Both the position numbers and the translations under genes were made by a program. From Candidatus Latescibacterota bacterium (GTDB lineage Bacteria; Latescibacterota; UBA2968; UBA8231): a stretch of 64,000 bases of DNA. Location: NCBI GenBank assembly GCA_965197905.1, contig CBDAOB010000005.1, forward strand, positions 672,001 through 736,000. The letters are read 5' to 3'. The notes under the pieces were generated by a model that saw only the letters and a list, made by a program, of their open reading frames with translations, had not been told where the DNA came from and ran no database searches. Below are positions 7,157 through 24,870 of this stretch, one piece after another. Within the stretch, counting starts at the first letter, position 1, and the number at the start of each line of letters is the position of its first letter.

Positions 7157-7235
7157 TCGCCGAGTCCTTAGAGGTTAGGTCTATGGTGTCGGGGCTTGGT
7201 CGGCCTCAAGCCCATAACCAAAAACGGGATATGAC

Positions 7236-8120
7236 ATGATAGAAATGAGCGAACGCGAGAAGTTTCTCCTGGACTTGCAGGGTTTTTTGCATGTGAGGGA
7301 GTTTCTGTCTGCGGAAGAAGTACGTGCCCTCAACGAAGCCGTAGATGCCAATGTAGACGAGGAAGCCGAGGATTTCTTTCCTCCGGAAGCCCAATACGGC
7401 GGCGGGATGGACGGGCAAATCGGCAAAGGAACCATAGAAGGAATGCTCACCTGGGAGCAGCCGTGGTGCCAGCCCTTCCGCGACATGCTGGCCCATCCGA
7501 AACTCATCCCATATCTCAATACGCTCTTTGGTCGAGGCTGGAGAATGGACGAACGGCCGTTTATCAGCGTTGCCAAGAAGGGCACGGGCGGTCACGGCCT
7601 GCATGGTGTTACCAGCCGAATTTTCGACGGGAGCCAGTTCTACCACTATGCCAACGGCGAGATACGCGCGGGGCTGGCCGTTTTCCAGTTCCAACTGGCA
7701 GACATCAATCCCGGCGACGGGGGGCTGGCCGTAATTCAGGGCAGTCACAAGGCGAATTTCAAATGCCCCGAAGATATCATGCTCTGGAGCGCTGACCGGG
7801 AAGTGGTGCGAGGTGTGGGTGGCAAGGCCGGGGACATGGCGATCTTCCTCGAGGCCACCATACACGGGGCTTTTCCCTGGACGGCGGAGCACAATCGGCG
7901 CTCGCTCTTCTACCGCTACGGACCCAAGTACCTCACTTATCACGCGGACTACATCGAGACCAGCCAGCCCGAGTGGGTGAGCGAGCTGACCGATGTGCAA
8001 CGAGCCGTTCTGGAACCTGCCTACGTTTATGCCCGGCCCCTGCTGGAGGACGACGGAGCGACGCTGGTGCATCCCGGGCAAGAGCCGGCCGCCCACCGTC
8101 CCCCGAAAAAGGACGCGTAG
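7236..8120 (+). CDS. PhyH-family dioxygenase-like protein
   Basis: FLLDLQGFL, GGLAVIQGSHK, EATIHG, RRSLFYRY. Confidence 0.8.
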   Translation: MIEMSEREKFLLDLQGFLHVREFLSAEEVRALNEAVDANVDEEAEDFFPPEAQYGGGMDGQIGKGTIEGMLTWEQPWCQPFRDMLAHPKLIPYLNTLFGRGWRMDERPFISVAKKGTGGHGLHGVTSRIFDGSQFYHYANGEIRAGLAVFQFQLADINPGDGGLAVIQGSHKANFKCPEDIMLWSADREVVRGVGGKAGDMAIFLEATIHGAFPWTAEHNRRSLFYRYGPKYLTYHADYIETSQPEWVSELTDVQRAVLEPAYVYARPLLEDDGATLVHPGQEPAAHRPPKKDA

Positions 8121-8127
8121 AATCCAA

Positions 8128-9774: not shown

Positions 9775-9975
9775 ACATCGGCTGGTAAGACGCCTGTCTT
9801 CCGTCTCAATCTCATAGCCTCTGCCAAGCAGGAGACGAGCACTAAAAACGACATAATTGTCGCCATGATTCATATTTGGCACAAAACTGTAGTATTAATC
9901 AGAGGTCCCGAACGCCCGAAGTTTTCTAATTAAATCGCTTACGTCGCAGTTTCTCGACAAAATTGTTGTATTTCT

Positions 9976-10107
9976 GTGCTGTTGGAACAAACCGGCGGAA
10001 ACATCGCCGCAGCCGCGCGGTTATTGGGCACCAACCGACCGAGAATCTATCGATTTATCGAAGAGAATCGCGCCCCGGCGAGCGGAAAGGTCAATCTGGA
10101 GAATTGA
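9976..10107 (+). pseudogene. Isolated Fis-type HTH fragment
   Basis: LLEQTGGNIAAAARLLGTNRPRIYR with no upstream AAA domain. Confidence 0.6.
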
Positions 10108-10133
10108 TGCCCAGACGGTGAGTCGAGTAGGGA

Positions 10134-10703
10134 ATGAAAAACGATGTGAACTATGAGATTGTGCTGATCGGTCCAATCGGGGTTGGGAAGAGTACTCTTG
10201 GCGAGCTCATTGCGAAGGAGCTGAACGTCCCATCGTGTTCACTGGATGATGTTTGGCGGAACTACGCGCAGGAAATTGGCTACGATAGTGACTTCGCCAA
10301 AAGTCTACAGGAGAGGGGGGGGGGATTTTGGGCGAGTTATATCTACAGGAAAGAGTTCTGCTGCTACGCCGTCGAAAAAGTTCTGTCAGAGTATCACAGT
10401 TGTGTCTTAGATTTCGGTGCCGGTCACTCCGTCTACGAGATCGACAGTCACTTTACGCGAGTCCAGAAGGCGTTAGAACTCTTCAGGAACGTCGTGCTTG
10501 TCTTGCCTTCTCCTGACGAATCCGAGGCAATACGAACACTAGCGGAGGTGCGACCTGACATGCCCAAGGATATCAAGGCACATTTTCTCGCACATCATTC
10601 CAATTACGATCTGGCAAAGTTCACGGTTTATACAAAAGGAAAATCTCCGGAACAGACCAAGGTCGAAATCCTCAATTTCGTCTACGATAGTGGCCAACCA
10701 TAG
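10134..10703 (+). CDS. Shikimate kinase-like P-loop protein
   Basis: IGPIGVGKST, VLDFGAGH. Confidence 0.8.
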   Translation: MKNDVNYEIVLIGPIGVGKSTLGELIAKELNVPSCSLDDVWRNYAQEIGYDSDFAKSLQERGGGFWASYIYRKEFCCYAVEKVLSEYHSCVLDFGAGHSVYEIDSHFTRVQKALELFRNVVLVLPSPDESEAIRTLAEVRPDMPKDIKAHFLAHHSNYDLAKFTVYTKGKSPEQTKVEILNFVYDSGQP

Positions 10704-10856
10704 CGTTTCTTATTCGCGACGCATGGCCGATTGAGCTGAATGATCTTGGCATTGCTGTGGCGATATGGTCAAGAGAAGCAAGCTCACAATTCCTACCAGA
10801 TGCCGAACTACTGATGCTGCGAACCGTGGGCGGCAAAAAGAGGCAACTTCTCAGCC

Positions 10857-11216
10857 TCATGCCGCTTCAACCTCTGGTGGCGCAACAGGCGATGGCTTCC
10901 ATTCGTTTCTGAGAAGAGCTGACCGAATCTCACGTTTGGCCAGGCCGTTTTCGATGTGAGCCAGCCTGAGCTTGAGGGAGTCAAGTTTCTTTTCCAGCGC
11001 GACCTTCTTGCGTTCCAGCGCCAGCCTGTTCTGCTCTGCCGTCTCTCGTTCAACCTCAAATTTTCTGAGGGAGTTCATTCGTTCCTGGCGCAGGCATTTC
11101 AGCTCCCAGATAGATTTGTGCATTCGAACTAGCAGGTGGCTGGTCAGAATCTTCGTGCCAATGGCCGCTGCCATGATTGCGAGCGACACGCTCAAAAAAC
11201 TGGTATCGACGTACAT
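10857..11216 (-). CDS. Small protein with N-terminal hydrophobic helix and coiled coil
   Basis: GGGGAGG RBS before MYVDTS; hydrophobic stretch followed by a heptad-rich segment. Confidence 0.7.
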   Translation of the reverse strand: MYVDTSFLSVSLAIMAAAIGTKILTSHLLVRMHKSIWELKCLRQERMNSLRKFEVERETAEQNRLALERKKVALEKKLDSLKLRLAHIENGLAKREIRSALLRNEWKPSPVAPPEVEAA

Positions 11217-11270
11217 TGAGCACCTCCCCAGTTTGTCTTCTTGTGCTTGAGCCTCCTCGCCTATAGTTGA

Positions 11271-11285
11271 GCAATTGCGATGCCA
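11271..11285 (-). promoter_or_regulatory. Sigma-54 -24/-12 promoter
   Basis: Minus strand TGGCATCGCAATTGC has exact GG-N10-GC spacing, 55 bp upstream of ATG 11216. Confidence 0.7.
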
Positions 11286-11584
11286 CAATGGGTGCGCCCC
11301 GTCGACACAGAAGGGACAAAAGATGCCCAATATCGGCACACGAGTTGTAGCTTGAGCGGCGCCTGTCCCGCAAATGCGATTGATTCGCGCAGGGCTCTCC
11401 ATGGCATTGGGGCATTTGGCCCGAAGAACTCGAGAAGTCCAATCCGAGACCGTGCTACGTAAGTCATGGCAACCTATTGGTTTAGAATTGTCGCGCCAAG
11501 GAAAGCCTGACCACGACGGGGCAACGAACCCAGTGTCGGGCGTGGACCCAATCTACCGAAAGCATTAAGGAACGAGGACTTGAA

Positions 11585-12313
11585 CTACCCGACGAGGACC
11601 ACCAGAGCCGAAATGTTGTCCAAATTTCCGTGCCCCTCATGCGCTGCGCGGTTTACAAGCTCACTGGCGATGGCAGCCGCGGAGCCGTTGTTGCCGAGAA
11701 TCTCCCATATTGACGAGTTCTCCATTTCCCCATGCAATCCGTCGGAGCAGAAGAGCAGCCGGTCATTTTCTTCCAGCTGCTCTTCACCCAGCTGCGGTTC
11801 TACATTTCGCGGGGTACCCAGGTATCGCGTCAGAACATTCTTGTAGCTGGAGTGAGCCGCCTGTTGCGTCGAGATCAGTTCGCGATCAACTAGGTATTGG
11901 GCCTGGGTGTGGTCGAAGGTGAGTTGCTTGAGCTCTTCGTCGCGGAGGTGGTATAGACGACTGTCGCCCACGTGACAGAAATGCAGGCGTTGATCTCTTA
12001 CGAGCCCGAGCGTTAGGGTGGTACCAAGATCCCGAAGGCTGGGGTCTTGCCGGCCAACACCTCTGATGCGGCGATTCGCCGCCTGGAAGAGCCGGTCCAG
12101 CAGCGACGGGATTTCACGGTCGACGGCGGCGAGAAGAGTTTGAATATGCTCGTCCACCGTATCGACCGCTAATTCGCTGGCAACCTGACCACCGGCCTGC
12201 CCTCCCATGCCATCGGCAATCAGATAGACGATCCCTTCCCCCAGGACCGCCCCGCGGTCTTCGTTTGTATCTCGATCTCCGCGATTGGAGCAGAGAGCGC
12301 TATCGAAGGTCAT
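11585..12313 (-). CDS. PP2C/Stp1-type Ser/Thr protein phosphatase
   Basis: RDTNED, IADGMGG, HVGDSRLY, CSDGL, DNIS. Confidence 0.93.
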   Translation of the reverse strand: MTFDSALCSNRGDRDTNEDRGAVLGEGIVYLIADGMGGQAGGQVASELAVDTVDEHIQTLLAAVDREIPSLLDRLFQAANRRIRGVGRQDPSLRDLGTTLTLGLVRDQRLHFCHVGDSRLYHLRDEELKQLTFDHTQAQYLVDRELISTQQAAHSSYKNVLTRYLGTPRNVEPQLGEEQLEENDRLLFCSDGLHGEMENSSIWEILGNNGSAAAIASELVNRAAHEGHGNLDNISALVVLVG

Positions 12314-12320
12314 TGATTGG

Positions 12321-15300
12321 TCAGGCGAGCTCGGCGAGGATGTCGCGCACCCGATTGAGATCCGCATCGGCATCGATCTTGGCGAAGATCGACTCGGCTT
12401 CTCGCAACGGGATCAACGCCGTGTCAGCCTCGCCTCGGTCGCGGCTCAGGATACCCAACTCGAAGAGGGCTTCACCAAGACTGACCGATTCGCCGAACTG
12501 CCGGTTTATCTCGATGCTCTTTTCGAGATAGGCTTTGCCGTCATCCCATTTGCCCTCCAAGCGGCAAAAGCGACCGTACATCTTGAGCGCATCTGCGACG
12601 CCGAGGGGATCGTCGCGGCGGCGGTATCCTTTGAGCGTGCGACTGCATGCCTCTTGAGCTTTGTTCCGCTCACCCGCTCCCAAGAGCGCCTCCGACCGGC
12701 TCAGCTCAATGTCAGATTGGTGAAAGAAGTAGCGCGTCTCGTGACAGACGTCCATGCTGCGAGAGTAAAGCTCGAGGGCTTCATCCCATCGTTCTTCGTC
12801 GGCGCGCAGCATTCCCATGTTCCACAATGTCATCATCTTCTGCCAGGTAACTGTCCCGCCCTCGTCGATGGCCAGAACCCGCTCGTACAACCTCCACGCC
12901 TCGTCCCGCTGACCCCGCACGGTGGCGAGCACCGCCATGTTGTTGAGTACATCGCCGGTCTCTTGCGGTGTGTCACTGAGTATTTCCAAAGCTGCTTTCC
13001 AGCGGTTCTCTGCCTCGTCGTAACGACCGCACTCGAAATCGATGCAGCCCCAACTGGTCAGCACACGCGCCCCGATCGGCGACGCATTCTGGCCTTCCAA
13101 ACACTGAAGGGCGTCCTTGTAGTGCGACGACGCTTCGGCAAAGCGGCGCAGCTGCTCATTGGCTTCGCCCATCAAACGCAGAGCCTCCGCCTCTTCAAGA
13201 GGACGTGCCATTTCTCGGGCGGCCTGGCGCATTTCTTCGCACGACTCCAACGCTTGTTCCAGGTTCGAGAGGAAGACCTTCGCCTTGGCGCCAAACGAAA
13301 GGGCATGCAGGAGGTCGTCTCCAGACCCGGCCCCCTTGCGACATGATTCCCCGGCGCACTCGAACAGGCGGATGGATCCGCGCCAATCGAAGAGCTTGAA
13401 CGCCTCGTCAGCGCCACGAATGAGATAGGGTAAAGCAGCGTCGAAATCTTCGGCGAAGAAGAAATGGGTTCCCAGCTCTTCATCGCTGACTTCGTTCCCT
13501 TGTGCCAGCTGGTCCTTCAATGCGGCGGCAACGATCTTGTGGTATTCGCACCGCAATTCCCACGGCATCTCGGCGTACAGCACCTCGCGAATCTTCGAGT
13601 GAGTGAACTCGTAGTAGCCGTTTCGGGTGACGATGAGCTGGTTCGACTTTTCCAACTTGAACAGCGACTTCAACAGGTCGATGCGCCCGACCCCGGAGGC
13701 CTCCTCCAGAACGCGGGAGGTAAATTGCTGACCGATTACAGCAGCGATCTGCAGGAGCTCGCGATTCTCCGAGTCTAGCTGCTCGACCCGTCGCATGACC
13801 AAGGAGCTGATGCGTTCGGGAACCACCACCTCGGTGATCCCGGTCTGCGCCGTCCACACTCCGCTCTCGCAATAGAGCATGTCGCGACTGCGCAGCAGCT
13901 TCAGAATCTCGAGCGCTATGAACGGATTGCCCTGGGACTGCTCGTGGAGGTATTTGGAGAACTCTTCGCTGAAGTCCGATTCGAGGAACAGCGACCTCAC
14001 CAGCTTGGCCAGCTCGGGGATGGAGAAGCGCCCCAAACTCACCTCGTTCAAGCGACCCTCGGAATCGAGCTGTCGCAATACGTTTTCGAGCTGAACGCTT
14101 TCCGTATCTCCGCTTGAAATTTCCTCGTTGCGGTAGGTTGCAACCCACAGGATCTGCGCCTCCGCTGCCCGCCGTGCCAGGTTTTGCAGCAGCAAGAGGG
14201 AGCCCTCGTCCGCCCAATGCATGTCCTCCAAGAATACCACCAGGGGATGCTGGGATGCGGCGGTTTGCAGGACTTCGAAAATCGTGTCGAACAGACGCTG
14301 CCTGGCCGCCTCCGGATTGGCTTCAGCTCCGAACGCGGCGGCGAAACTTGCGCGGATTTTGGCGGTGGTGCTGGAGCTGCTCGCCAGCTCGGCGAGCTCT
14401 GGTGCCTGGCGCTGCAGGATGTCGGCCAATGCGGCGCGCTCTTCCGGGGAAAGCTCGCCTTCACCGGCAGCAAATAAGCTGGCAAGGGCGTCCAGATAGG
14501 GCATGTACGGACCCATGCCGTGCTCGAAAAAACAGATTCCCTTGACCACGCGGCCCTCGTTCTCGATCACGTAGCGGCCAAATTCCTCGACGACGCGGCT
14601 CTTGCCGATGCCCGCCTCGCCGGCCAGGAAAACCACCTTGCCGCCATCCACCAGCGCATCGAAATGCGCCACCAAAGTGCCGACCTCGATCTCGCGTCCG
14701 GTGAAACGGGACTGGAAATACCTGGTGCGAAGCTCTTCCCCCTCGTCCACCGGTTCGGTCGCACCAACTTCGGGTACGGTGAGAAGCTGCTGTCGATGGC
14801 TGACTTCCTCTATACCGTTGAAGGCGGCGTCAGCGGATGGAAAGCGGTCTTCCGGTACCTTGTCCAGTAGCCGCAATACGAAACGGTCGACGGAACGCGG
14901 CAGATTGGGGTTGAGGAAGGATGGAGGGCGCGGCTCTTCGTTCAGCTGGTGATAGACCAAGGTCGCCGGAGAATCTCCCGCGAAAGGCAGAATACCGGTG
15001 AGCATCTCATAAAGCACGACGCCCGCCGCGTAGAGGTCGACTGCGGGACCGATTTTGTCGCCCACGATCTGCTCGGGAGCCATATACTCGACGGTGCCGA
15101 GGATCTCGTCGGCTCGGGTCAACGCCACGTCTTCGGCCATCTTTGCCACGCCGAAGTCGAGAATCTTTATCGTGCCATCTTCTTTGATGACCAGATTTTC
15201 AGGTTTGATATCCCGATGGATGACCTCACCGTCGTGCGCCGCCTGGAGACCATTGAAAAGCTGCGAAGCTATCGCCAACGCCTCTTCCACTGCCAACCCG

Positions 15301-15626
15301 CTCTTGCGCTGGCGTATGAGCTGCCGCAATGGCTGACCTTCAACCAGCTCCATCGCCAAAAAGAGGTGGCCTTCGTCCTTGCCGGCACCGTAGACCGCCA
15401 CGACGTTGGGGTGGGATATCTTGGCGGCCAGCTGGGCTTCTCTTTGAAAGCGATCGGCTTCGCGAACATCATCCACCCGATCCAGCCGCAGCAGCTTGAG
15501 GGCCACGTCTCGGCGGAGGTTCTCGTCCCGGGCACGGTAAACCGCCCCCATGCCTCCGCTCCCGAGCAGCCGGGTGACGACATAACCTCCGAACTGACGC
15601 CCCACTAACGGATCATCGGTTTCCAT
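12321..15626 (-). CDS. Ser/Thr kinase - AAA/STAND ATPase - TPR fusion protein
   Basis: GSGGMG, VALK, HRDIKPEN, DFG, GTVEYMAPE; Walker A GEAGIGKS; Walker B FLEDMHWAD; GNPF; TPR-like C-terminus. Confidence 0.93.
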   Translation of the reverse strand: METDDPLVGRQFGGYVVTRLLGSGGMGAVYRARDENLRRDVALKLLRLDRVDDVREADRFQREAQLAAKISHPNVVAVYGAGKDEGHLFLAMELVEGQPLRQLIRQRKSGLAVEEALAIASQLFNGLQAAHDGEVIHRDIKPENLVIKEDGTIKILDFGVAKMAEDVALTRADEILGTVEYMAPEQIVGDKIGPAVDLYAAGVVLYEMLTGILPFAGDSPATLVYHQLNEEPRPPSFLNPNLPRSVDRFVLRLLDKVPEDRFPSADAAFNGIEEVSHRQQLLTVPEVGATEPVDEGEELRTRYFQSRFTGREIEVGTLVAHFDALVDGGKVVFLAGEAGIGKSRVVEEFGRYVIENEGRVVKGICFFEHGMGPYMPYLDALASLFAAGEGELSPEERAALADILQRQAPELAELASSSSTTAKIRASFAAAFGAEANPEAARQRLFDTIFEVLQTAASQHPLVVFLEDMHWADEGSLLLLQNLARRAAEAQILWVATYRNEEISSGDTESVQLENVLRQLDSEGRLNEVSLGRFSIPELAKLVRSLFLESDFSEEFSKYLHEQSQGNPFIALEILKLLRSRDMLYCESGVWTAQTGITEVVVPERISSLVMRRVEQLDSENRELLQIAAVIGQQFTSRVLEEASGVGRIDLLKSLFKLEKSNQLIVTRNGYYEFTHSKIREVLYAEMPWELRCEYHKIVAAALKDQLAQGNEVSDEELGTHFFFAEDFDAALPYLIRGADEAFKLFDWRGSIRLFECAGESCRKGAGSGDDLLHALSFGAKAKVFLSNLEQALESCEEMRQAAREMARPLEEAEALRLMGEANEQLRRFAEASSHYKDALQCLEGQNASPIGARVLTSWGCIDFECGRYDEAENRWKAALEILSDTPQETGDVLNNMAVLATVRGQRDEAWRLYERVLAIDEGGTVTWQKMMTLWNMGMLRADEERWDEALELYSRSMDVCHETRYFFHQSDIELSRSEALLGAGERNKAQEACSRTLKGYRRRDDPLGVADALKMYGRFCRLEGKWDDGKAYLEKSIEINRQFGESVSLGEALFELGILSRDRGEADTALIPLREAESIFAKIDADADLNRVRDILAELA

Positions 15627-15655
15627 TGCGGAATCCCTTTGAGTATCCAGCCAAT

Positions 15656-18025
15656 CTAAGCGGCCAACGAATCGATGAGTTCTGCGGCTTCGTCGGCGGC
15701 CGCCGATGCCCCGATGTCAGAGAAACGGAGCCGCGCTTCTTGCCAGGATCTGCGCGCTGCAATCAGGTCACCGCGGCGTTGATGGACATGTCCCAACTCT
15801 CGATCGCATTCGGCTACCTCGTAGCTGTTCTGCAGATCGACGAGCAGATTCTTGCTTCTCAGCAGCAATTCCTCGGCTCGATCCGCTTCCCCCTGTTCGC
15901 GTTTGATGATGCCTTCCACCTTGATATTTTCGGCCTGACCTCGCCGGTCGCGCGCCTGATCGGCATAGGCGCTGGCAGCGGCGCATGTGCGTTCCGCCGT
16001 CTCGGGCTGTCGCGTTTCCAGCTCGGCTAACGCGCGGCTGCTCAGAGCCCGCCCGAGGAGGGCGGTGGCTCCCATGTGCCGCGCCAATTCCACCTCATTC
16101 CGAAAATTTTCCAACGCCGCCGGCCAATCCTTCTGGACAACGTGATTGAATCCAATTCCGTGCGCAACTGGGGGAAAGCCCCCTGCACCCGTAAAACAAC
16201 GCATCGCTTTGGTGTAGAGCAGCATAGCCTGGACATTGTCACCTTGTAACGTTGCCAAATGGCCGCGGGTAGAGTAGATGGCCCCGAGTAGTTCGTCGTC
16301 GCCGGCCACGATCGCCAGTTCGGCGCCGACGCGAAGGTGCTCGGCAGCTGTGATAAACTGCGATTTCCCGAGAGCAATCCGAGCCAGCAGCTCCGACAAT
16401 CCGGCACGCTGCATGGCGTCGATTTGGGACTCGAACTGGATGTCGTGACACAAATGTTCCGCTTCCTCGTTCTGCCCTCTCTGAAAGTGCAGCTCGCCCA
16501 TCAGCAGCAGGGCCCTGACCTGGGCCGCCCTATTCTCGTTCGGCGCGGCAAGCTGCAGGGTTTCGCGGCAGTTTCTGGCTGCATCCTGCCATTCACCTAG
16601 ACGAATCTCCACGTCCGCTAATTCCAGCAGCACGGTTATGGTCCGGTTACGGTCCGGACCGGTCTCCAACTGCCGAGCCATCTGCAGTCCCATCCCAAGA
16701 AAGCTCCGAGCTACCGTCAGCTCTGCCCGCTGGCGCGCTTCTCGGCTCGCATTTAACAGGTATTCCACCGCCTTGGCGGATTCTCCGGCGTGACGCGAAT
16801 GTCGCGCCAACGCCTCCGTTCTATTGGCGGGCGCTTTCTCCATGAAGTGAAGAAGACGCAGATGCATCTGGCGGCGTTTTTCAGCGGGCATCCTGGCGTA
16901 GAACAGGTCAGCCATCGCGCCGTGGGAGAAACGAAAACACCTGCCGGCCGGGGCGAGCAGGTGGGTTGATCGCTGCATTCGCACCAGCCTCCTCAAGACG
17001 CTGGTGCGGGGCCAACCCAACGCTTCGGCAACGAGCACACCTTCAAACACCGGACCCTGAATCGAGGCGGATTCCAGCAGGGAACGGTCCTCCGTATCGA
17101 GGCCCTCCAGCAAATAGTCGACGTGCAGGACATCCTCTGATTCAACCACTTCCCAGCGGCGATTAACCCAGACTCCGTCGTGCTCGTACAGGATGCCCTG
17201 TTGTCTTGCCCGTTCCACCTGTTCGATTACGTCGGCGGGGTAGCCGTCGCTGCGGGAACAGATTTGTGCAGTGAGATCCTCGTTCAGTTCGGAGTAGACC
17301 AGGTAAGCTTCGGTCAGTTGGCGCACGTCGGTTGCAGACATTCTGCTCAGTCGGACGAGCTCTACATGCTTGCGACAGGTCAGGGAACGCAGAAGGGGGG
17401 TGGTTGAGCTCGGTCCGGACCAACCTGCCGTCCGCGGCCGCATCGCGCAGACCACCACCAGTGCTTGGCTCTCAATCCTGTTCGTAAGGTAGGCGACGAG
17501 ACTGATGGTAGCGGAATCGGCCCGATGAAAGTCGTCAAAACACAACACCAGCGGTTGCTTTCGCGACAAGCTCAACAAGCAATTTGCAATGCGGGCGACG
17601 CCAAGTCTGGCACCCAGGACCTCGTCGGTGTCAGGCGAAGACCCACTGCGCTTGCGGGGGCGAGGATACACTAGTTGCGCCAGTTGTGGGTCGTATGCCT
17701 CGATTGCAGTACGAAAGTTCCTTTGTTCAGCGGGAGAACCCAGGCTGGAGCAAACGCGCAGGCCGTTCAGAAAGGCGCCGAAAGGAATGCCGGGGTCCTC
17801 GTGCGATTCGCCCGCCCCGACATACTGTATTCCAAGGTCCGCGGCGGAGAACTCCATTTCGGCGAGCAGCCGGGACTTTCCGGTGCCGGGTAGGCCGGTG
17901 ACAAATACGGCCGAACCGCGCGACGAAAGGGATTCGTTCAACTTTTCCCTTAGCAGCGATAACTCCGCGTCGCGGGCGATCAGCTGTGGGCGCACTTCGC
18001 TTGTTGTAGTCGATCGAGTTTTCAT
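15656..18025 (-). CDS. AAA/STAND ATPase with TPR repeats
   Basis: GLPGTGKS, CFDDFHRAD, FRFSH, helical TPR-like C-terminus. Confidence 0.88.
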   Translation of the reverse strand: MKTRSTTTSEVRPQLIARDAELSLLREKLNESLSSRGSAVFVTGLPGTGKSRLLAEMEFSAADLGIQYVGAGESHEDPGIPFGAFLNGLRVCSSLGSPAEQRNFRTAIEAYDPQLAQLVYPRPRKRSGSSPDTDEVLGARLGVARIANCLLSLSRKQPLVLCFDDFHRADSATISLVAYLTNRIESQALVVVCAMRPRTAGWSGPSSTTPLLRSLTCRKHVELVRLSRMSATDVRQLTEAYLVYSELNEDLTAQICSRSDGYPADVIEQVERARQQGILYEHDGVWVNRRWEVVESEDVLHVDYLLEGLDTEDRSLLESASIQGPVFEGVLVAEALGWPRTSVLRRLVRMQRSTHLLAPAGRCFRFSHGAMADLFYARMPAEKRRQMHLRLLHFMEKAPANRTEALARHSRHAGESAKAVEYLLNASREARQRAELTVARSFLGMGLQMARQLETGPDRNRTITVLLELADVEIRLGEWQDAARNCRETLQLAAPNENRAAQVRALLLMGELHFQRGQNEEAEHLCHDIQFESQIDAMQRAGLSELLARIALGKSQFITAAEHLRVGAELAIVAGDDELLGAIYSTRGHLATLQGDNVQAMLLYTKAMRCFTGAGGFPPVAHGIGFNHVVQKDWPAALENFRNEVELARHMGATALLGRALSSRALAELETRQPETAERTCAAASAYADQARDRRGQAENIKVEGIIKREQGEADRAEELLLRSKNLLVDLQNSYEVAECDRELGHVHQRRGDLIAARRSWQEARLRFSDIGASAAADEAAELIDSLAA

Positions 18026-18111
18026 GGACTATGCTTTTTTTCAGTTACAGCGGAGAGACTGGTGTGGAGAATCTCCGGGATGCCGTTCCTCGAGCGGCTC
18101 CAGGCAGATCA

Positions 18112-18732
18112 TCAGCGGCGCGAACCGCGGCGCAGACCGTACCGTGAAAAGCCCGGTATGGAGATTTCTACTGCGAGCTCATCGTCGTCGGCATCTATGT
18201 CAATAATCTCAGCAACGGTGCTGGTGCCATCGGGATAGATGTGAAATGCCTGAATATCAGAGCTTTCGGGATTGTCGTCCTCAGATTCCATATCGATCTT
18301 GAGAACCGCCGGAATTACGAACTGAGTGCCGGGGGGGTGGAAAGCGATAACCAAATCGTTCAGTGTGCTTCCGGACACCGTCATGGTGATTACCACATCC
18401 TCGCCAACCCCTCCCTCTTGCACACAGAACTCCACGTTGACTTCGGAGTCCTCCTCCTCCATTTTCACTTCGAACTCGCCAGCGTCATCGGGCGTGAACA
18501 GGTCCGAATCGGTGCGGCTGTTGTCGTCATCGTCGTCGAGCCGTTTTGCGGCGCGCATGGCCGCCTCGGGTGAAAAGGCGATGATGACCCTGCCGGAGGG
18601 ATCCTCTTCCACAGCTTGACCAGCCGAAGTCGGGGAGTCGGAGACGTCACTACACCCGTACATGGCCAACGCAAGGAGGGCCACCAGGAAGGTGATGGCG
18701 AGGAGTGCCGGACTGTTGAATCGAGGTAACAT
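18112..18732 (-). CDS. Acidic lipoprotein with a ZU5-like domain
   Basis: Lipobox MYGC; FHPPGTQFVIPAVLKI and terminal IPGFSRY; GGAGG RBS. Confidence 0.65.
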   Translation of the reverse strand: MLPRFNSPALLAITFLVALLALAMYGCSDVSDSPTSAGQAVEEDPSGRVIIAFSPEAAMRAAKRLDDDDDNSRTDSDLFTPDDAGEFEVKMEEEDSEVNVEFCVQEGGVGEDVVITMTVSGSTLNDLVIAFHPPGTQFVIPAVLKIDMESEDDNPESSDIQAFHIYPDGTSTVAEIIDIDADDDELAVEISIPGFSRYGLRRGSRR

Positions 18733-18777
18733 TCGTATTTCCTCCAGAAGGGGGAGTTCTAACAGATCCTCATACAG

Positions 18778-18792
18778 GCAAAGGTCGTGCCA
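18778..18792 (-). promoter_or_regulatory. Sigma-54 -24/-12 promoter (consensus)
   Basis: Minus strand TGGCACGACCTTTGC matches TGGCACG-N4-TTGC. Confidence 0.85.
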
Positions 18793-18813
18793 TCTGCGCG
18801 GACCCTCTCGCCT

Positions 18814-18844
18814 TTTTTATTAATTGTTTAATTTCAACGAGTTA
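18814..18844. promoter_or_regulatory. IHF-like site with AT tract
   Basis: TTTCAACGAGTTA is one mismatch from WATCAANNNNTTR, sits next to a T/A-rich tract, and lies between the promoter and the enhancer-like boxes. Confidence 0.55.
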
Positions 18845-18868
18845 CGGTTAGTCTGCAAAGCCCTGGTT

Positions 18869-18933
18869 GGGGTTTTCATCCCGTGGTGGTGAAAAACGAC
18901 GCGGGTGATATAACCCACTGGGTCAAATGACCC
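18869..18933. promoter_or_regulatory. Phased palindromes, putative enhancer (UAS) sites
   Basis: GGGGTTTTCATCCC at 18869, GGGTGATATAACCC at 18903, GGGTCAAATGACCC at 18920, spaced in multiples of 17 bp. Confidence 0.6.
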
Positions 18934-18939
18934 GGGGGA

Positions 18940-19320
18940 TTAAACCCGGAACTTCAAAATCGTATGGCCCATTTTGATCAGATCATCGTTTTTCAAGAGC
19001 GTAGGCGCCTGAATGCGCTCGCCGTTGACGTGGGTGCCGTTGGTGGTGTCGAGGTCCTCGACCCAGAAACTGTCCGACTGGTAGGATATCTTGGCATGCG
19101 CCGTGGACACCTCGTCATCGCTCAAGACGATATCGTTGGATTCTCCCCGACCGATGAAACGCTCGACCACTGAGATCAGGTACTCCTGTTTCTCTCCATC
19201 TGCCCCCATGACTACCAGACGGCCGACGATGTACGGTTCGATGGCGAGGCCATTGCCGCACTGGGTGCAGAAATTCGTCCCGCTTCTGTTTTGATGGCCG
19301 CAGTTAGTGCAGAGTTTCAT
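18940..19320 (-). CDS. Zinc-ribbon + FHA domain protein
   Basis: CTNC/CTQC; FHA motifs IGR, VSTAHA, TTNGTHVNG. Confidence 0.9.
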   Translation of the reverse strand: MKLCTNCGHQNRSGTNFCTQCGNGLAIEPYIVGRLVVMGADGEKQEYLISVVERFIGRGESNDIVLSDDEVSTAHAKISYQSDSFWVEDLDTTNGTHVNGERIQAPTLLKNDDLIKMGHTILKFRV

Positions 19321-19330
19321 GGGATGCTGT

Positions 19331-19618
19331 TCAGCTGCTCTTCTCCATGAGGTCTTTCGCTTCGGCGATTCGGTCCTTTATCTCCTCATTTTGCGGGTCT
19401 TGCTCCAGCGCCTTTTCCCAGGATTCGACGGCCTCAGAATACATCCCCTTCTTGAAGTAGACGAGCCCCAGGTTGTACTGCACGTCCACCAGATTCAGTG
19501 ACTTTTGGGTTCTGGCGCCACTCTCGAGGAACTGCGGATCGACCAAGCGCGTGCCGCATACGCCGCAGTACCTGTCGCCTTCATGGTAGGCTGATTGACA
19601 ACCGGGACACTCTGGCAT
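19331..19618 (-). CDS. Zinc-ribbon + TPR protein
   Basis: CPGC/CGVC; YNLGLVYFKKGMYSEAVESWEKALEQDP. Confidence 0.88.
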   Translation of the reverse strand: MPECPGCQSAYHEGDRYCGVCGTRLVDPQFLESGARTQKSLNLVDVQYNLGLVYFKKGMYSEAVESWEKALEQDPQNEEIKDRIAEAKDLMEKSS

Positions 19619-19633
19619 TTTACTCCTGCGCTC

Positions 19634-20192
19634 TCAATCTGTCGCCACAGAATCGCCGCAATTGCCGCAAAATCGATCGCCGGGGCTGAAGAGAGTCCCA
19701 CACTGTTGGCATTCCCTCTCCGCTTCGAGGGTAGTGCCGCATTGCCGGCAGAATCGATCATCTGCTTGGGCCTGGGTCCCGGCACTGAGGACAAAACAGG
19801 TATAAATCACCATTCCGATCCTCCAGCACCCGGCCAAGCTCCTGTAGAAGCCGCTCTTGGTCGAACGGCTTGGCAATGATTCCGCAGACCCCCAGGTCGA
19901 TTAGCGGCCCTATCGCTTCCTTGTTCAGATAACCTGAGACTACGATCGTGGGGGGCACCGCCATCTTCCTGTTTTTCATGAAGCTCAAGAGGTCTTGCCC
20001 ATGGGGCCCAGGCATATGAAGGTCGAGGAGCATGGCATCGACCGTTTGGACCTTGAGAAGCTCGAGGGCCGTACGCACCCTTTCGGCCTGGAGCGTTAAG
20101 TGGCCGGCTTTCTCCACCATGCGGGACAGGGTTTCCGCAACGGACCTGTCGTTGTCGACGATCAAGACCCTCTTGATGATGTTGGTACCCAT
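19634..20192 (-). CDS. Response regulator receiver + double zinc ribbon, frameshifted near 19781
   Basis: VLIVDND, LLDLHMP, AKP. Removing one base near 19781 joins FCPQC-GTQAQADDRFCRQCG...CQQCG...FCGNCG. Confidence 0.8.
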
Positions 20193-20202
20193 CTCCAGGC
20201 GC

Positions 20203-21177
20203 TCAGCTCAGGGGTAGGAAAAACCGAAAACTAGTGCCCTCGCCGACTTTCGAAGCCAAGAGGATTTCGCCCCGGCAGCTGTCAGCAATGCTCCTGCATA
20301 TGGCTAAGCCCAACCCGGTGCCCACATCCTCATCCTTTGTCGTGAAGAAAGCCTCAAAGATCTCAGCCATCGATTCTGTAGCAATCCCCGGACCATTGTC
20401 GCGTACCTCGGCAAATGCCATGGGGACATCGTCAACGTCCGAGCTCAGAGCGCGAAACACCGACCAGCCTCGTTCTTCCTCTTCAGATGCGACCTCCTCG
20501 GCCGCGGCGGCACCGGTAGCGATCTCGATCAGTCCGCGGTCGACATTCCTGGTGGCATCCAAGGCGTTGACCAAAAGATTGGTTATTACCTGCTCGATCT
20601 GTGTCGCATCGCCGCGGACTTCCGGCAGCTCGAAGTCGAAGCTGGTGTGCACGTCGATCCCCTGTGTGAGCGGGAGGAAGAACGTCAGCAGATCGTCGCA
20701 CACGGAGTTGAGGTTGAGGTCGCTGACTTCGGCGTGTTTCTTGCGTGAAAAATTGAGAATGTTCCGGGTCAGGTCTTTCAACCTCTGCGTGCCGCGGTGC
20801 ATGGCCGTAAAAACAAACTCTTGCTCTTCGGTATTCTCTTCTTTGAGCAAGAGCTCGAGATGGCCGGAAATCACGGCCAACGGATTGTTGATTTCGTGGA
20901 TGATCGCCGAGGCCATCTGGCCCATCGCGCTCATGCGCTCCGAGCGCACCAACATGCGTTGCGCCTGCTTTAGCTGCACGTGGGCTTGCTCGATTTCGCT
21001 CAATCTCTGCTGCAGCTCCCGATTGCGCGCGCGTAATTCCTGGTAGGCGATCTGGGTCTCGAGATCGGACACCGAGAGAATCCCTTCCATCTGCCGATAC
21101 GCCATTTCCAGCTCGTCCAGCAGATAGGTATTCTCCGCCTGCAACTTCTCATCGGTATGGGTAGATTTTCGGCTCAT
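20203..21177 (-). CDS. Cytoplasmic histidine kinase (HisKA-HATPase) with coiled-coil N-terminus
   Basis: HEINNPL, NLLVNALDA, DNGPG, FFTTK, GTGLGL; no TM or sensor domain visible. Confidence 0.92.
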   Translation of the reverse strand: MSRKSTHTDEKLQAENTYLLDELEMAYRQMEGILSVSDLETQIAYQELRARNRELQQRLSEIEQAHVQLKQAQRMLVRSERMSAMGQMASAIIHEINNPLAVISGHLELLLKEENTEEQEFVFTAMHRGTQRLKDLTRNILNFSRKKHAEVSDLNLNSVCDDLLTFFLPLTQGIDVHTSFDFELPEVRGDATQIEQVITNLLVNALDATRNVDRGLIEIATGAAAAEEVASEEEERGWSVFRALSSDVDDVPMAFAEVRDNGPGIATESMAEIFEAFFTTKDEDVGTGLGLAICRSIADSCRGEILLASKVGEGTSFRFFLPLS

Positions 21178-21179
21178 GA

Positions 21180-22571
21180 CTATACGGCGTTGTTGATGCC
21201 GAACTTTCGCATGCGGTACCGCAGCTTGTCTCGGCTGATCGCGAGGAGGGCGGCGGTCTGCGAAACGTTGCCGCCGGCGTGTTTCAAAGCCGCTTCGATC
21301 AGTTCCCGCTCCACTGCTTCCATCGCAATTCCGCCCTCGGGAAATTGAATGCTGATAGAGCCCCTTTCGTCAACTGCAACGTTGGAAACCGGCTCGCGGC
21401 GGGCGTCCCGGGATCGCCGATCGATCTCCAGATCGGCTGCCGATATCACCTCGCCGTCGGTCATCAGGACCGCGCGTTCGACGACATTGCGCAACTCGCG
21501 GACGTTTCCCGGCCACGGATACGCCTTGACCAATTCGCAGGCATCCTCGCCAAATCGGCGCCGGGCCGATCCGTGCATGTCCGAAAAGGCATTCAAACAA
21601 TGTTTGGCAAGGAGAAGCGAATCTTCGCTGCGCTCCCGTAAGGGCGGCAAATCCATGGGAACGACATTGAGCCGATAATAGAGGTCTTCACGAAATCGAC
21701 CTTCGGCTACCGCCTTTTCCAGATCTTCGTTGGTGGCGGCGAGGAATCGCACCGAAACCTCCTGCTGTTGCGTGCTGCCAACGCGGCGAAATCTCTGCGT
21801 CTCCAAGACGCTCAGAAGTTTGGCCTGCAGATTGATGGGCATCAAGCCGATTTCGTCGAGCAACAGCGTCCCCTGATCGGCCACCTCCAGCAGGCCCTGT
21901 TTTCGAGCCTTGGCATCCGTGAAGGCGCCGCGCTCATGGCCAAAGAGCTCGGATTCCATCAGGTTGCCCGGGATGTTGGTGCAATCGACGCTAATGAACG
22001 GTTTGTCACGCGTGCTCCCAAGCGTATGAATCGCTCTCGCCACCAGCTCCTTTCCGGTGCCGCTTTCTCCCCTGATCAATACGGTGGCCCGGGTGCCAGC
22101 GACACGGTGAATCATGCGAAACACATCCTGCATCGCCTCACTGGCACCGACGAGTCCCTCCAGCTCGCTCTCCGGTTCCGGGGGCGGCTCCAAGAGCTTG
22201 TCGATGAGCACGCGCAGTTCGGCGAGGGGAGTTGGTTTGGTGAGGTAATGCGTCGCTCCCAGACGTATCGCATCCATTACCGCCGATGCTCCCTGGTAGG
22301 CGCTCATCATCACCACGGGACACGAGTGTTCCAACTGCTTCAGGCGTTTTAGAACCTCCAGGCCATCCATGTCGGGAAGGCGCAGATCGAGCAACACCAA
22401 CCCCGGTTCGATCTCGCCACAGATGGAGATGCCCTCTTCCCCGGAGCTCGCTTCGACCGCCGAGTACCCCAAGCCGCGAACGAAATTCGACAATAGTCCA
22501 CGAAGATCGACGTCGTCGTCGATTACCAGTACCGCGGTAGTCGTTCCAATGTCTTCCGCGTTGCTCACCAC
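21180..22571 (-). CDS. NtrC-family sigma-54-dependent response regulator
   Basis: Receiver LLDLRLPDMDG; GESGTGKE; GAFTDA; WPGNVREL; Fis-type HTH. Confidence 0.95.
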   Translation of the reverse strand: MVSNAEDIGTTTAVLVIDDDVDLRGLLSNFVRGLGYSAVEASSGEEGISICGEIEPGLVLLDLRLPDMDGLEVLKRLKQLEHSCPVVMMSAYQGASAVMDAIRLGATHYLTKPTPLAELRVLIDKLLEPPPEPESELEGLVGASEAMQDVFRMIHRVAGTRATVLIRGESGTGKELVARAIHTLGSTRDKPFISVDCTNIPGNLMESELFGHERGAFTDAKARKQGLLEVADQGTLLLDEIGLMPINLQAKLLSVLETQRFRRVGSTQQQEVSVRFLAATNEDLEKAVAEGRFREDLYYRLNVVPMDLPPLRERSEDSLLLAKHCLNAFSDMHGSARRRFGEDACELVKAYPWPGNVRELRNVVERAVLMTDGEVISAADLEIDRRSRDARREPVSNVAVDERGSISIQFPEGGIAMEAVERELIEAALKHAGGNVSQTAALLAISRDKLRYRMRKFGINNAV

Positions 22572-23615
22572 TCAGAATCCCACGGCGACACTCACCGTAT
22601 GCAGCGAGTCAAAGAACTTCACATCGGTAAAAGCATAGTCGACGTCGACATCTTCGAGACCGCCGACGTCGAGCTCCAGCCCCAATCCAAAGCTGCTGCC
22701 GAACAGGTCATTATCTCTTCCGCCTGGCGCGACATCGAATCCGGTGCGCAACGTGAGAAAATCGCCAAAGCCGTATTCAACCCCCATCTTGATCTCGTCC
22801 AGATCGAAGTTATTGCGCTGGAACATGGTATGCAGCTGCAGGCGGTCAGCCGGGCGTGGGCGGTAGCGATATCCGAAACCCAGCTCGAAGGTGGAGGGGA
22901 GATCGCTGAACTCGCCTCGATCTTGTAGGTCGAGGAGGGGCGGCGCAGGTTTTCCGTTTGTCCACGTCGCCTCAATCCGGAACCGTCGAACCGCATCGGC
23001 GTTCCCAGATTCTTGATCGATACGCCGAAGTCCAACCCTTGTATGGCACCGAAATCGGCATACTGCAAACCGAAGTTGAAGGCGAGCGCCGAGGCACCGA
23101 CTTGGTCGAAGCGGTTGGCCACGTAGTTCACTGTGCCTGCCACCGCCACCCGAGTTCCCACCTGCCGCGCAAAGCTCAACCCGGCGACCACAAACGTCGG
23201 TGCAAAGGTGCCACCCGTGCCGTCGGGCTGGGTTTCGGTGGTGATCTCGATCTCATTTGCGGTGAGGACCTTCATGTTGGCGGCAACCGAACCCAATCCG
23301 GCGAACCGGGCGCTGGCTGCGGCGTAGCTGATGCGAATGTCCGCCAGGTAAGACATGGTGGCGAACAGAAGGGTGGCGTCGTGCGACCCTCGCGCAAGGC
23401 CTGCAGGATTCCAGGAGAGGGCGGTTATGCCTTCGGTGGTGGCGATGGAAGCGCCTCCCAGTGCAGCGGCCCCGGGCGTCGACCGGAATCAGCAGTTCAG
23501 GTGCAGCAGCGGTCCCGGCCCGTTTGTCCCCGTTGGCGAAGACACTGGAGGCAAGGCACAACAAAACAACGAATGCCATCAACTGTATCGCGGAGGACGT
23601 TCTCAGTGTATGCAT
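22572..23615 (-). pseudogene. PorV/PorQ-family outer-membrane beta-barrel with two frameshifts
   Basis: Signal peptide, GTAAAPELLIPVDARG-AALGG, WNPAGLA, terminal Phe. Frameshifts near 23470 and 22905 join three ORF pieces. Confidence 0.8.
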
Positions 23616-23625
23616 AGCTAGGAAC

Positions 23626-24870
23626 CTAGAACCGATCTAGGACCTGTTGTTCCTGCACCAGGATCAGCTTGAGTGTTCGGGCGATGTTTAGATCGGGCAG
23701 CTGCACCAGCGCCAGATACATGCCGCTGGCTACCGGAATCCGGTGGTCGTTGAGCAGATCCCAGCGCATGAACTGGCTGTCGTCTTCTTTTAGCAGGGTG
23801 CGAACCCGGGTCCCTGCCAGATCGAAAATCTGGATTCGGACATGCTCCGGAAGGTGGCTGAAGGTGATGAAACGATCGTGACGGCTGGTCTCAGCCTCGT
23901 TTACTCCGTAGTACGGATTCGGAAATGCCTTGATCTTCCTGGCATCGGCCCGGCGCAGTGAATCAGAGGAGGCGATACCGGGCACCTCAAAGGAGAAGAC
24001 GTCTTCCACAGCCAAAGGCGAGGTCGGAACCAGCAGGAAACTGTCCTCTTCGCGGGGGAATCGATCCTCTTGCAAGCGACTGGCAAAAACGATCCACATG
24101 ATGGGCAGGTCGACCTCTTCCGGCAGCAGGCCGTGATCGGTCAACAATCCGTTTCCGGCGCCGGCGTTCGGATCGGTGTAATCGAGGTCGAAAACGAGCA
24201 ACCACTCGCTGGGGCTGTAGATGGAGATGTTGTCGGTAGTCTCCTGCCAGGCGGGGCCGTAAGCGCCGTTGACCAGACCCTCCGGCACGTTGTTTTCCAT
24301 AAAGCCCACCTCGAGGCGGCGCGGGGGGTCGCTCTGCACGTCGTAAGCAGCTACCCCGATCGGTACCCGGTCCTGGTAGAGGATGAAACCGGGCCCCTCC
24401 GTTTGCACGACGAATTCGCTCCAATCGTATGGATTGGAGGTGTTGAGCAGCTCATCGGGGGCCGGCACCGGCGCATCGGCATGATCGAGATAGCGATAAG
24501 CCCAGGATACATCGGCAGCCGTCAGGTCAACCGGCCGGTACTGATCTCTGCCTTCTTCAACAACCACGTCGGCAAAGCGCAGCTCGACCGTTCGTGCGCG
24601 GTCCGCGGACACGGAGGATGGCGCGAGCCAGAAGGTGTTCGGATCGCCCGTTATGGCGCCGCCAAAACCTTCGGCGCCCCACTCGGCGCCCACCCATGAA
24701 TACCAGCGCTCTCCCGACGGCACGCTCCACTCCTTCATTCCAGGGGCGGGGCCCTGGACCCGGACCTCGAACCCTTCGGACCCGACATAGTGTCGGCTGC
24801 CTTGCTGATCGGTCTGCCCGTCAAGCAACAGGGTATTGGTCGCCTCATTAGTGAGCTCCCACTCCAGCCC
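23626..24870 (-). CDS. Secreted protein with a T9SS type-A-like C-terminal sorting domain; N-terminus missing
   Basis: IKAFPNPYYG...FSHLP...IFDLAG...WDL...VASGMY. The frame extends upstream as WELTNEATNTLLLDGQTDQ until it meets the RND gene. Confidence 0.75.
   Translation of the reverse strand, partial: GLEWELTNEATNTLLLDGQTDQQGSRHYVGSEGFEVRVQGPAPGMKEWSVPSGERWYSWVGAEWGAEGFGGAITGDPNTFWLAPSSVSADRARTVELRFADVVVEEGRDQYRPVDLTAADVSWAYRYLDHADAPVPAPDELLNTSNPYDWSEFVVQTEGPGFILYQDRVPIGVAAYDVQSDPPRRLEVGFMENNVPEGLVNGAYGPAWQETTDNISIYSPSEWLLVFDLDYTDPNAGAGNGLLTDHGLLPEEVDLPIMWIVFASRLQEDRFPREEDSFLLVPTSPLAVEDVFSFEVPGIASSDSLRRADARKIKAFPNPYYGVNEAETSRHDRFITFSHLPEHVRIQIFDLAGTRVRTLLKEDDSQFMRWDLLNDHRIPVASGMYLALVQLPDLNIARTLKLILVQEQQVLDRF

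Follow-up and report, generated by a model that had tools for sequence, protein, structure and literature searches.

Bacterial proteins in which a kinase or an adenylyl cyclase is combined with a STAND NTPase and tetratricopeptide repeats (TPRs) were reportedly given the name SWACOS by Leipe in 2004. Most bacterial STAND-TPR proteins that are now being characterised are defence sensors; genomes commonly encode kinase-fused ones as well, few of whose pathways have been worked out. Here we describe a gene cluster that encodes such a kinase-fused protein and lies in a 64,000-nucleotide stretch of DNA from a Candidatus Latescibacterota bacterium (contig CBDAOB010000005.1, positions 672,001 to 736,000, i.e. 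G000:C5:672001-736000 in our analysis coordinates), which is referred to as the window. Its nine genes encode, in this order, an NtrC-type sigma-54 activator, a histidine kinase (HK), a receiver (REC)-zinc ribbon protein, a zinc ribbon-TPR protein, a zinc ribbon-FHA protein, a lipoprotein, a STAND-TPR protein, a Hanks-type Ser/Thr kinase-STAND-TPR protein and a PP2C phosphatase. The cluster is real, conserved and largely as first described in a preliminary description of the window, which had missed the ZU5 fold of the lipoprotein, the pairing of the lipoprotein with TPR proteins and an invariant threonine in the zinc ribbon-TPR protein.

The kinase-STAND-TPR protein resembles SWACOS-type STANDs, as cited in excerpts of PMC8195603 and PMC7159879 (published systems are compared on the basis of excerpts throughout), in having a P-loop NTPase of the AAA_16 type with GRE, Walker A and Walker B motifs, C-terminal TPRs and a fused Hanks-type Ser/Thr kinase. 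TIGR03903, a TOMM kinase/cyclase fusion model, matches its STAND region with an E value of 1.7e-93, but with 314 bits against a cut-off of 706 bits, and in contrast to these proteins the cluster has neither a cyclase domain nor TOMM genes and embeds its kinase in a circuit of 7-9 genes with adaptors and a ZU5 lipoprotein. Coupling of a Ser/Thr kinase to an HK is known from cyanobacterial HstK/cbSTKIII (PMC2176072), and coupling of a Ser/Thr kinase to a sigma-54 activator is found in kinase-STAND-TPR-GAF-sigma54 fusions of this phylum. Both are single polypeptides with a GAF domain, whereas the cluster consists of separate proteins without GAF and has FHA and Thr-TPR adaptors in between; as its genes are separate and GAF is missing, membership in the HstK/cbSTKIII group was rejected. 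Since relatives encode kinase-AAA_16-TPR-GAF-sigma54-HTH as a single chain (L099 and L106), this STAND type is tied to sigma-54-dependent transcription. The cluster may be regarded as a split, elaborated form of the kinase-STAND-sigma54 and HstK-type fusions. These chains (L099:6460-11274 and L106:5266-10092) are 1600 aa long, and matches of similar length, with several copies per genome, occur in one genus of family f2. Cyclase-fused STAND homologs exist among relatives as well. A zinc ribbon-adenylyl cyclase-STAND-TPR gene in the genome of the window (L036:6418-11734, G000:C3), interrupted by stops, lies beside a cNMP-binding sigma-54 activator, which links STAND to sigma-54 a second time there. 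No published system with the arrangement of the cluster was found in literature searches, which mostly covered papers outside subscription; within these searches, the preliminary description was right in assigning the architecture to no named system.

We propose that the cluster forms an autoregulatory loop, in which the STAND kinase acts through a phosphothreonine (pThr)-bearing adaptor and an FHA protein on the HK, the HK on NtrC, and NtrC on a sigma-54-dependent operon, and we give this reading a slightly better than even chance. An inducer would likely be bound by the TPRs of the STAND kinase and turn the kinase on, which may involve oligomerisation by analogy with MalT, for which inducer-triggered oligomerisation is established (PMC4381067, in excerpt). 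Thr37 of the zinc ribbon-TPR adaptor is the predicted substrate of the active kinase; the FHA adaptor would then bind pThr37 and likely switch the sensorless HK. Phosphorylated NtrC would in turn activate the sigma-54 promoter that precedes the genes for the ZU5 lipoprotein, the lone STAND, the kinase-STAND and PP2C, so that the promoter output would close the loop; PP2C may reset it, and the REC-zinc ribbon protein may serve as phosphate sink or second output. We infer the phosphorylation, binding and transcription steps and the direction of the flow from conservation, gene fusion, co-loss and established domain behaviour. A self-contained circuit of His/Asp and Ser/Thr phosphorylation had been suggested before and is supported as a conserved module, as are the STAND-TPR proteins as switches within it, the switching itself being deduced from better known family members. 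The cluster thus offers a kinase-STAND pathway with all its parts and testable residues (Lys44/Asp139 of the kinase, Thr37, Arg58/Ser72 of the FHA adaptor, His94 of the HK and Asp62 of NtrC) and one promoter, and it suggests a concrete route for the control of an HK by Ser/Thr phosphorylation, i.e. a split FHA-pThr adaptor.

The nine-gene order is kept in three other genera of the family to which the window belongs (G015, G157 and G022, the copy in G022 being distributed over two contigs), and a rearranged core is present in 12 of 168 genomes of the phylum, so that the synteny which the preliminary description proposed to look for does exist. The counts for the phylum were obtained with profiles of the zinc ribbon-TPR protein and of the HK N-terminus, 30 candidates per genome being scored. 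The zinc ribbon-TPR profile matched 12/168 genomes, 11 of them at full length (a weak TPR-only match in G098 was excluded); five of these 11 had provided the seeds and six are outside the seed alignment. The HK profile likewise matched 12/168 genomes, namely the same 11 and G102, where the contig (L069) breaks off immediately behind the HK. In 11 of these 12 relay genomes the kinase-STAND-TPR gene is found in the same locus, the contig of the remaining one starting at the HK, and 10 of the 11 zinc ribbon-TPR genomes also have the FHA gene within the locus. Outside the window's family the usual order is kinase-STAND, HK, (receiver), zinc ribbon-TPR and zinc ribbon-FHA. The second STAND and PP2C are restricted to the window's family (PP2C in its four loci) and are not the constant features that had been assumed; in other families the slot of the lone STAND is occupied by a stand-alone TPR protein of about 400 aa that is colinear with the STAND sensor.

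FHA domains recognise pThr, and the residues required for this in the FHA adaptor (G-R, S-x-x-H and N-G) are invariant in 13/13 proteins. Thr37 of the zinc ribbon-TPR adaptor is Thr in 45/45 homologs (27 distinct at <70% identity), never Ser, and is located seven residues before the TPR within an otherwise variable linker. In two loci, L062 and L068 (the contig of the latter being labelled Acidobacteriota), FHA, Thr motif and TPR are fused in one protein behind the same HK; an unrelated Hanks kinase is adjacent and no STAND or lipoprotein is nearby. A combination of FHA and linker threonine is shared with GarA/OdhI and Rv1747, as described in excerpts, and the L062/L068 fusion has this layout in cis. 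GarA/OdhI and Rv1747 act on metabolic enzymes or a transporter, whereas the cluster splits the switch over two zinc-ribbon proteins, adds a TPR and has the HK as predicted target; only in L062 and L068 is the linker Thr on the FHA chain, the window carrying it on a separate protein. A complex prediction with two copies of HK residues 1-150, FHA and zinc ribbon-TPR reached 0.26 against a mark of 0.32 with phosphothreonine not being representable, and counts neither way. Among the matches listed for the zinc ribbon-TPR profile in a representative library, long TPR proteins dominate and 6/150 have the right length; a search with the HK N-terminus found 2 proteins only.

The HK has 324 aa and no sensor domain, but a conserved N-terminal coiled coil with invariant positions and a family-specific insert in the ATPase domain. 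Its gene lies 3' of the kinase-STAND gene, either immediately or with one receiver gene in between, in G026, G030, G043, G067, G078, G079 and L069. As the HK is sensorless, is mostly found directly behind kinase-STAND elsewhere, and kinase-STAND-TPR/sigma-54 activator fusions exist, the STAND kinase more likely acts upstream of the HK. Loci L075-L098 were excluded, their histidine kinases being ordinary ones. The Esp system of Myxococcus (EspA and PktA5, PMC4320627) also has Ser/Thr kinases tied to an HK, FHA similarity and transcriptional feedback, and NF052573 (Esp) matches both the FHA adaptor and the HK. EspA is, however, a single hybrid protein, the output of Esp is MrpC proteolysis, and the excerpted account contains no STAND or ZU5 lipoprotein.

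The kinase-STAND-TPR protein comprises 1101 aa with Pkinase at residues 15-263; the lone STAND comprises 789 aa and reads ARDAE at the GRE position. Both contain AAA_16 (Pfam E values of 6.5e-28 and 1.1e-20) and TPRs, and a sequence search identified no solved relative of the STAND region. In a tree built with a quick method and containing no named reference sequences, separate branches unite the kinase-STANDs of the cluster (SH-aLRT 96) and the lone STANDs (99). Of 13 cluster proteins, 12 have intact kinase motifs. In loci without adjacent HK and adaptors (G021, G161 and L154), by contrast, HRD and/or DFG are absent from the Hanks kinases, and in L154 the activator is also without its receiver Asp.

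NtrC has orthologs with 54-65% identity in G015, G022 and G157 and combines a receiver Asp, an AAA+ domain and a helix-turn-helix (HTH); the RpoN box is found in the genome and a -24/-12 box is nearby. Exact sigma-54 boxes occur twice in the 64 kb, versus 0.27 expected, and one of the two precedes the lipoprotein gene. A box with <=1 mismatch is present <=500 bp upstream of the first lipoprotein gene in 10 of 13 loci (9/12 without the window; one of the 13 loci has a subtilase lipoprotein), at a distance of 60-93 bp in eight of them, compared to 0/13 on the opposite strand, 48/2600 in shuffles and 87/3091 for long ORFs of this genome. Such a box is also found in 10/20 further lipoprotein regions. 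The activator likely induces the lipoprotein-STAND-kinase-PP2C operon, because the box upstream of it is exact, conserved and located 60 bp in front of the first gene. In the subtilase locus (L027:17548-19411, G026) NtrC and a sigma-54 box are followed by a lipoprotein subtilase (I9 and S8) instead of ZU5 and by an ORF of 72 aa whose acidic repeat resembles a leader. The activator of another locus (L031:6749-8197, G030) has Arg for the Walker A Gly, with no sigma-54 box before the lipoprotein, which may reflect a sequencing error or decay.

Induction of the kinase module by a two-component system, as put forward in the preliminary description, agrees with the conserved sigma-54 box; in view of the sensorless HK and the fusions, the induction is probably half of a loop. 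In a one-way cascade the HK would take another input and NtrC would induce a STAND kinase acting on outside targets, with the adaptors located downstream or in negative feedback. We consider this unlikely: although the box lies upstream of lipoprotein-STAND-kinase-STAND-PP2C in the window's family, kinase-STAND follows the box in G078 and G067 as well, and stand-alone relatives of the HK exist (L070-L074), the HK has no domain for such an input and sits behind kinase-STAND in the seven loci named above. Moreover, the activity motifs of the Hanks kinase are decayed in the lineage without adaptors, and the fusions in relatives put STAND upstream of the sigma-54 activator.

Several observations weigh against the autoregulatory loop. 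Its direction is not fixed by gene order alone, and in the window's family kinase-STAND is downstream of the promoter and not beside the HK. In five loci (L070-L074) related sensorless HKs have no gene of the module in their vicinity. The loci with degenerate kinases count as one event, because G021, G161 and L154 form one branch (87/87), and the relatives in general are non-independent samples. One locus in G026 has zinc ribbon-TPR without FHA, 3/13 loci have no sigma-54 box, and both profile counts are limited to 30 scored candidates per genome. The activator loop reads GAFTDA instead of GAFTGA, a variant that is found in 8/11 related activators checked. Finally, the copy in this genome may be decaying, since its REC-zinc ribbon gene is frameshifted and its lone STAND diverged. 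The stand-alone HKs of L070-L074 belong to other lineages and have recurring gcvT-like, lamin-tail-like and HIT-like neighbours (labels by reading of the sequences).

The lipoprotein has 206 aa here and about 200-250 aa in relatives, and its lipobox Cys, as judged by motif, is invariant in 7/7. It has no Pfam match, and the first pointer to ZU5 came from the Atlas. Folding with a 48-row alignment gave a model with pLDDT 92 (an earlier 7-sequence fold with pLDDT 47 was unusable), which superimposes on ankyrin-B ZU5 (6m3q) with Z 12.2 and an rmsd of 2.5 over 118 aligned residues. ZU5 and GAIN chains make up most of the top 11 structure matches, with top Z values of 9-12, and Foldseek ranked the same chains first, E 0.001 not being reached. 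The model thus indicates a ZU5 beta-sandwich fold. At the domain end, Phe is present in 48/48 sequences, followed by Ser (47/48) or Thr (1/48) and preceded by Gly (40/48) or His (8/48). The self-cleavage motif of PIDD is H-F-S; the window lipoprotein reads G-F-S, i.e. a His-x-Ser/Thr self-cleavage motif is absent, and a different His (164) is retained in 40/48 lipoproteins. Ankyrin ZU5 domains, which make up several of the top matches, are not known to undergo self-cleavage. The fold and the conserved F-S near the C-terminus are shared with the ZU5/GAIN/FIIND domains of ankyrin, UNC5, adhesion GPCRs, NLRP1 and bacterial toxin ZU5 (PMC3482391, in excerpt), in contrast to which the ZU5 domain of the cluster is a stand-alone bacterial lipoprotein with mostly Gly before F-S.

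ZU5 lipoproteins are found in 23/168 genomes, and all but one of the 12 relay genomes are among these. Further lipoprotein regions were compiled from 25 of 30 non-seed places, the weakest five matches being left out, which gave 20 regions, several of which share genus or genome. In 15/20 the lipoprotein gene is directly followed by a gene for STAND-TPR or for a stand-alone TPR protein of about 400 aa, in three it is not, and two are at contig ends. Of 19 metagenome loci, 10 have >1.2 kb downstream, and the pairing is present in 7/10, or in 4/5 after removal of duplicates of each other or of set members (L152/L154, L159/L164, L153 and L163); L166 and L168 contain tandem repeats of lipoprotein-TPR pairs. 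Stand-alone bacterial ZU5 domains thereby gain a genetic partner. In an hhalign comparison the stand-alone TPR aligns colinearly with the kinase-STAND sensor (probability 100, 358 columns); among natural proteins of solved structure, the peptide-binding TPRs of LGN/Pins come closest to it in sequence. In one region (L140:7328-10711, G079) the ZU5 lipoprotein gene is split by a transposase-like ORF, with the TPR partner still 3'. No relative of the lipoprotein was found in viral contigs.

As an alternative, two uncoupled cassettes may share a neighbourhood, i.e. a sigma-54-driven ZU5 lipoprotein-TPR pair, with the TPR as chaperone or export sensor, and a Hanks kinase-FHA-HK relay. That the lipoproteins are more widespread than the relay (23/168 versus 12/168 genomes), that each is found alone, that the histidine kinases encoded behind lipoprotein-TPR pairs are of various unrelated kinds and that the relay in L062 and L068 has no STAND or lipoprotein nearby would be compatible with such an arrangement. 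It is nevertheless improbable in our view, as the relay genomes with a lipoprotein mostly have it in the same locus, the stand-alone TPR is colinear with the kinase-STAND sensor, and the activator of the relay locus adjoins the boxed lipoprotein in most loci.

Within the autoregulatory loop, the best candidate for the inducer is the C-terminal tail of the lipoprotein, albeit a doubtful one. The tails after F-S differ between genomes, but paralogs within one genome have them in common even where their cores share only about 30-37% identity (G079 and G081). One may speculate that the ZU5 lipoprotein self-cleaves at F|S and releases its short, lineage-specific tail, that the tail is read by the cognate TPR or STAND-TPR and that the relay drives sigma-54-dependent transcription of the precursor, which would amount to peptide autoinduction in a diderm host with NLR-like and FIIND/GAIN-like parts. 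We regard this as unlikely, and topology counts against the tail as signal, as the tail of an exported lipoprotein would have to reach a cytoplasmic TPR and the cluster has no importer gene. Should the tail prove to be the signal, this peptide communication would be of a new kind and would parallel, in bacteria, the ZU5/FIIND logic of PIDD and NLRP1. The gene for an exported precursor beside a gene for a cytoplasmic TPR protein, the tandem pairs (L166 and L168) and the variable C-terminal tails are reminiscent of RRNPP systems (PMC10075063, in excerpt), from which the cluster differs by its precursor, a lipoprotein of 200-250 aa with a folded ZU5 domain, and by its diderm host. RRNPP propeptides have 10-100 aa and a Sec/SPI signal, against 206 aa and a lipobox (by motif) in the window, and RRNPP receptors have 250-500 aa, against 789 aa for the TPR-bearing neighbour 86 bp away (about 400 aa in other families). 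Membership in RRNPP was rejected because the lipoprotein is too long and has a lipobox instead of Sec/SPI; no RRNPP protein is among the best 60 solved-structure matches to the TPR profile.

The predicted output is the production of exported ZU5-fold lipoproteins rather than phage defence, i.e. the cluster is likely a signalling system. NLR-like anti-phage defence, with the TPR recognising a phage protein and with growth arrest or surface remodelling brought about by the kinase or by the induced operon, appears quite improbable to us. It would draw on the architecture of Avs sensors, which is STAND-TPR (bioRxiv 2026.01.04.697583, in excerpt), on the patchy distribution of the module (12/168), on its location on an island that G002, a genome of the same genus, lacks at a site with otherwise conserved synteny, and on the occurrence of ZU5/FIIND domains in animal immune sensors (PMC3482391). 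The cluster, however, has no nuclease, protease, NADase or pore effector, and its sensors are conserved, not hypervariable. PADLOC matches of its proteins are to generic kinase, PP2C, TPR, receiver and sigma-54 AAA domains and none is on the STAND domain: the 25 matches listed for kinase-STAND cover residues 4-281 only, and the lone STAND has one marginal TPR match. In the flanks (118 ORFs from 16 stretches, threshold 1e-15), 7/118 ORFs match, all with generic domains, namely cNMP-binding, topoisomerase, ClpB, ABC, ankyrin and desulfurase-like (labels by reading of the sequences and their neighbours). As the matches are generic both in the module and in the flanks, the case for defence is weakened, and the PADLOC check proposed earlier indicates neither a defence system nor a defence-island neighbourhood; cluster flanks are metabolic or housekeeping, those of the window metabolic. 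Defence as an option equal to the others, as which it had been put forward, is not supported. According to the excerpt of bioRxiv 2026.01.04.697583, 198/589 STAND clades show an association with defence, with non-defence clades scattered between them. The cluster shares the STAND-TPR layout with Avs and bacterial NLRs described there, but lacks a toxic effector and a defence neighbourhood and has a dedicated transcriptional output. Membership in the Avs/defence STANDs was rejected, as there is no toxic effector, no defence STAND match over the NTPase and no defence island.

All genes listed in Table 1 are on the minus strand in the order given in the preliminary description, and Pfam recovered the domains named there for PP2C, kinase, STANDs, adaptors, REC, HK and NtrC. 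Contigs from four sequencing runs were placed on window positions 9500-29000, none of which spans the whole cluster. Run X4, from another sample and study, has contigs over 10472-20068 and 20060-24508 that differ from the window by a few percent; because these contigs cover the cluster and the gene order is conserved in G015, G022 and G157, an assembly chimera, one of the caveats raised earlier, was rejected. Single-base differences at window positions 12638, 12655 and 23374 occur in every covering run and are probably consensus errors of the window assembly. No Rfam family was found within window positions 5000-30000, and scans for sigma-70 promoters and terminators were no better than chance.

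Table 1. Positions of the genes and sites of the cluster and its neighbours in the window
Feature	Position	Strand	Remarks
Coiled-coil gene with own sigma-54 box, not a member	10857..11285	-	likely start 11216; box 11271-11285
PP2C phosphatase	11585-12316	-	Pfam; start by ORF caller 12373, homologs align from about residue 20
Hanks kinase-STAND-TPR	12321..15626	-	Pkinase, AAA_16 and TPR (Pfam); Lys44, HRD Asp139, DFG and Walker A/B intact
STAND-TPR without effector domain	15656..18025	-	AAA_16 and TPR (Pfam); Walker A/B present; most diverged of its clade
Lipoprotein with predicted ZU5-fold domain	18112..18732	-	lipobox Cys27; domain end G194-F195-S196; short variable tail
Sigma-54 -24/-12 box, exact consensus	18778..18792	-	60 bp before lipoprotein start
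Terminator-like hairpin 3' of FHA gene	18901..18918	-	weak: 16 such sites found versus 13 expected
Zinc ribbon-FHA adaptor	18940..19320	-	Pfam; pThr-binding residues G57, R58, S72, H75, N94
Zinc ribbon-linker-single TPR adaptor	19331..19618	-	Pfam; Thr37 (codon 19508-19510) candidate phospho-acceptor
REC (Asp57) with double zinc ribbon, frameshifted	19634..20192	-	frames 19758-20192 and 19634-19876; split near 19780
Sensorless HK, HisKA and HATPase	20203..21177	-	Pfam; N-terminal coiled coil, His94, intact N/G boxes
NtrC-type sigma-54 activator	21180..22571	-	Pfam and motifs; REC Asp62, Walker A, GAFTDA loop, Fis HTH
PorV-family gene (frameshifted), not a member	22572-23615	-	NF033709 match below cut-off
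T9SS-like cargo fragment, N-truncated, not a member	23626-24873	-	abuts C-truncated acrB

The REC-zinc ribbon gene has the domains that had been assigned to it, but is not intact: it is frameshifted near 19780, whereas it is a single ORF in G015, G022, G157 and G030. As the only gap in an X1 contig over 16692-24849 is at 22904, with no indel near 19780, X1 shares the frameshift; X1 may be the source sample.

The genes for the T9SS-like cargo, the PorV-like barrel and the coiled-coil protein had been counted as members of the cluster. None of them has a match in any relative's locus, and homologs of the coiled-coil protein are unlinked to the cluster in 15/41 genomes, so that their membership was rejected. 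The coiled-coil gene, with an exact sigma-54 box upstream of its most likely start, is possibly co-regulated with the cluster in this genome. Its product is small and membrane-anchored; related genes are scattered over 14 of the 24 genomes that were sampled from the window's family, and G000 has two more copies. The PorV-like gene is spread over three frames with breaks at 22904, which is an assembly error (an indel is present there in all four runs), and near 23470, which is uncorrected in the contigs of X1 and X3.

The cargo gene is no whole gene, but an N-truncated fragment comprising only the last ~410 codons, the frame of a paralog having 1119 aa. At its junction (24873) an acrB-family gene (window 24735-27815) stops at residue 981, before the last transmembrane helix. 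An X1 contig (24820-26637) bridges this junction without differences, i.e. the break is present in the DNA itself, and an X4 contig at the same place runs on into 5.6 kb of different sequence. In G002, which belongs to the same genus and covers the site in one contig, an intact acrB adjoins a Kelch gene and the window's ~7000-24873 is absent from that site; this region is therefore a variable island. Towards its other end (window 7236-9774), PhyH dioxygenase and GHL10-like genes have dozens of paralogous matches in both genomes of the same genus and thus belong to large family expansions.

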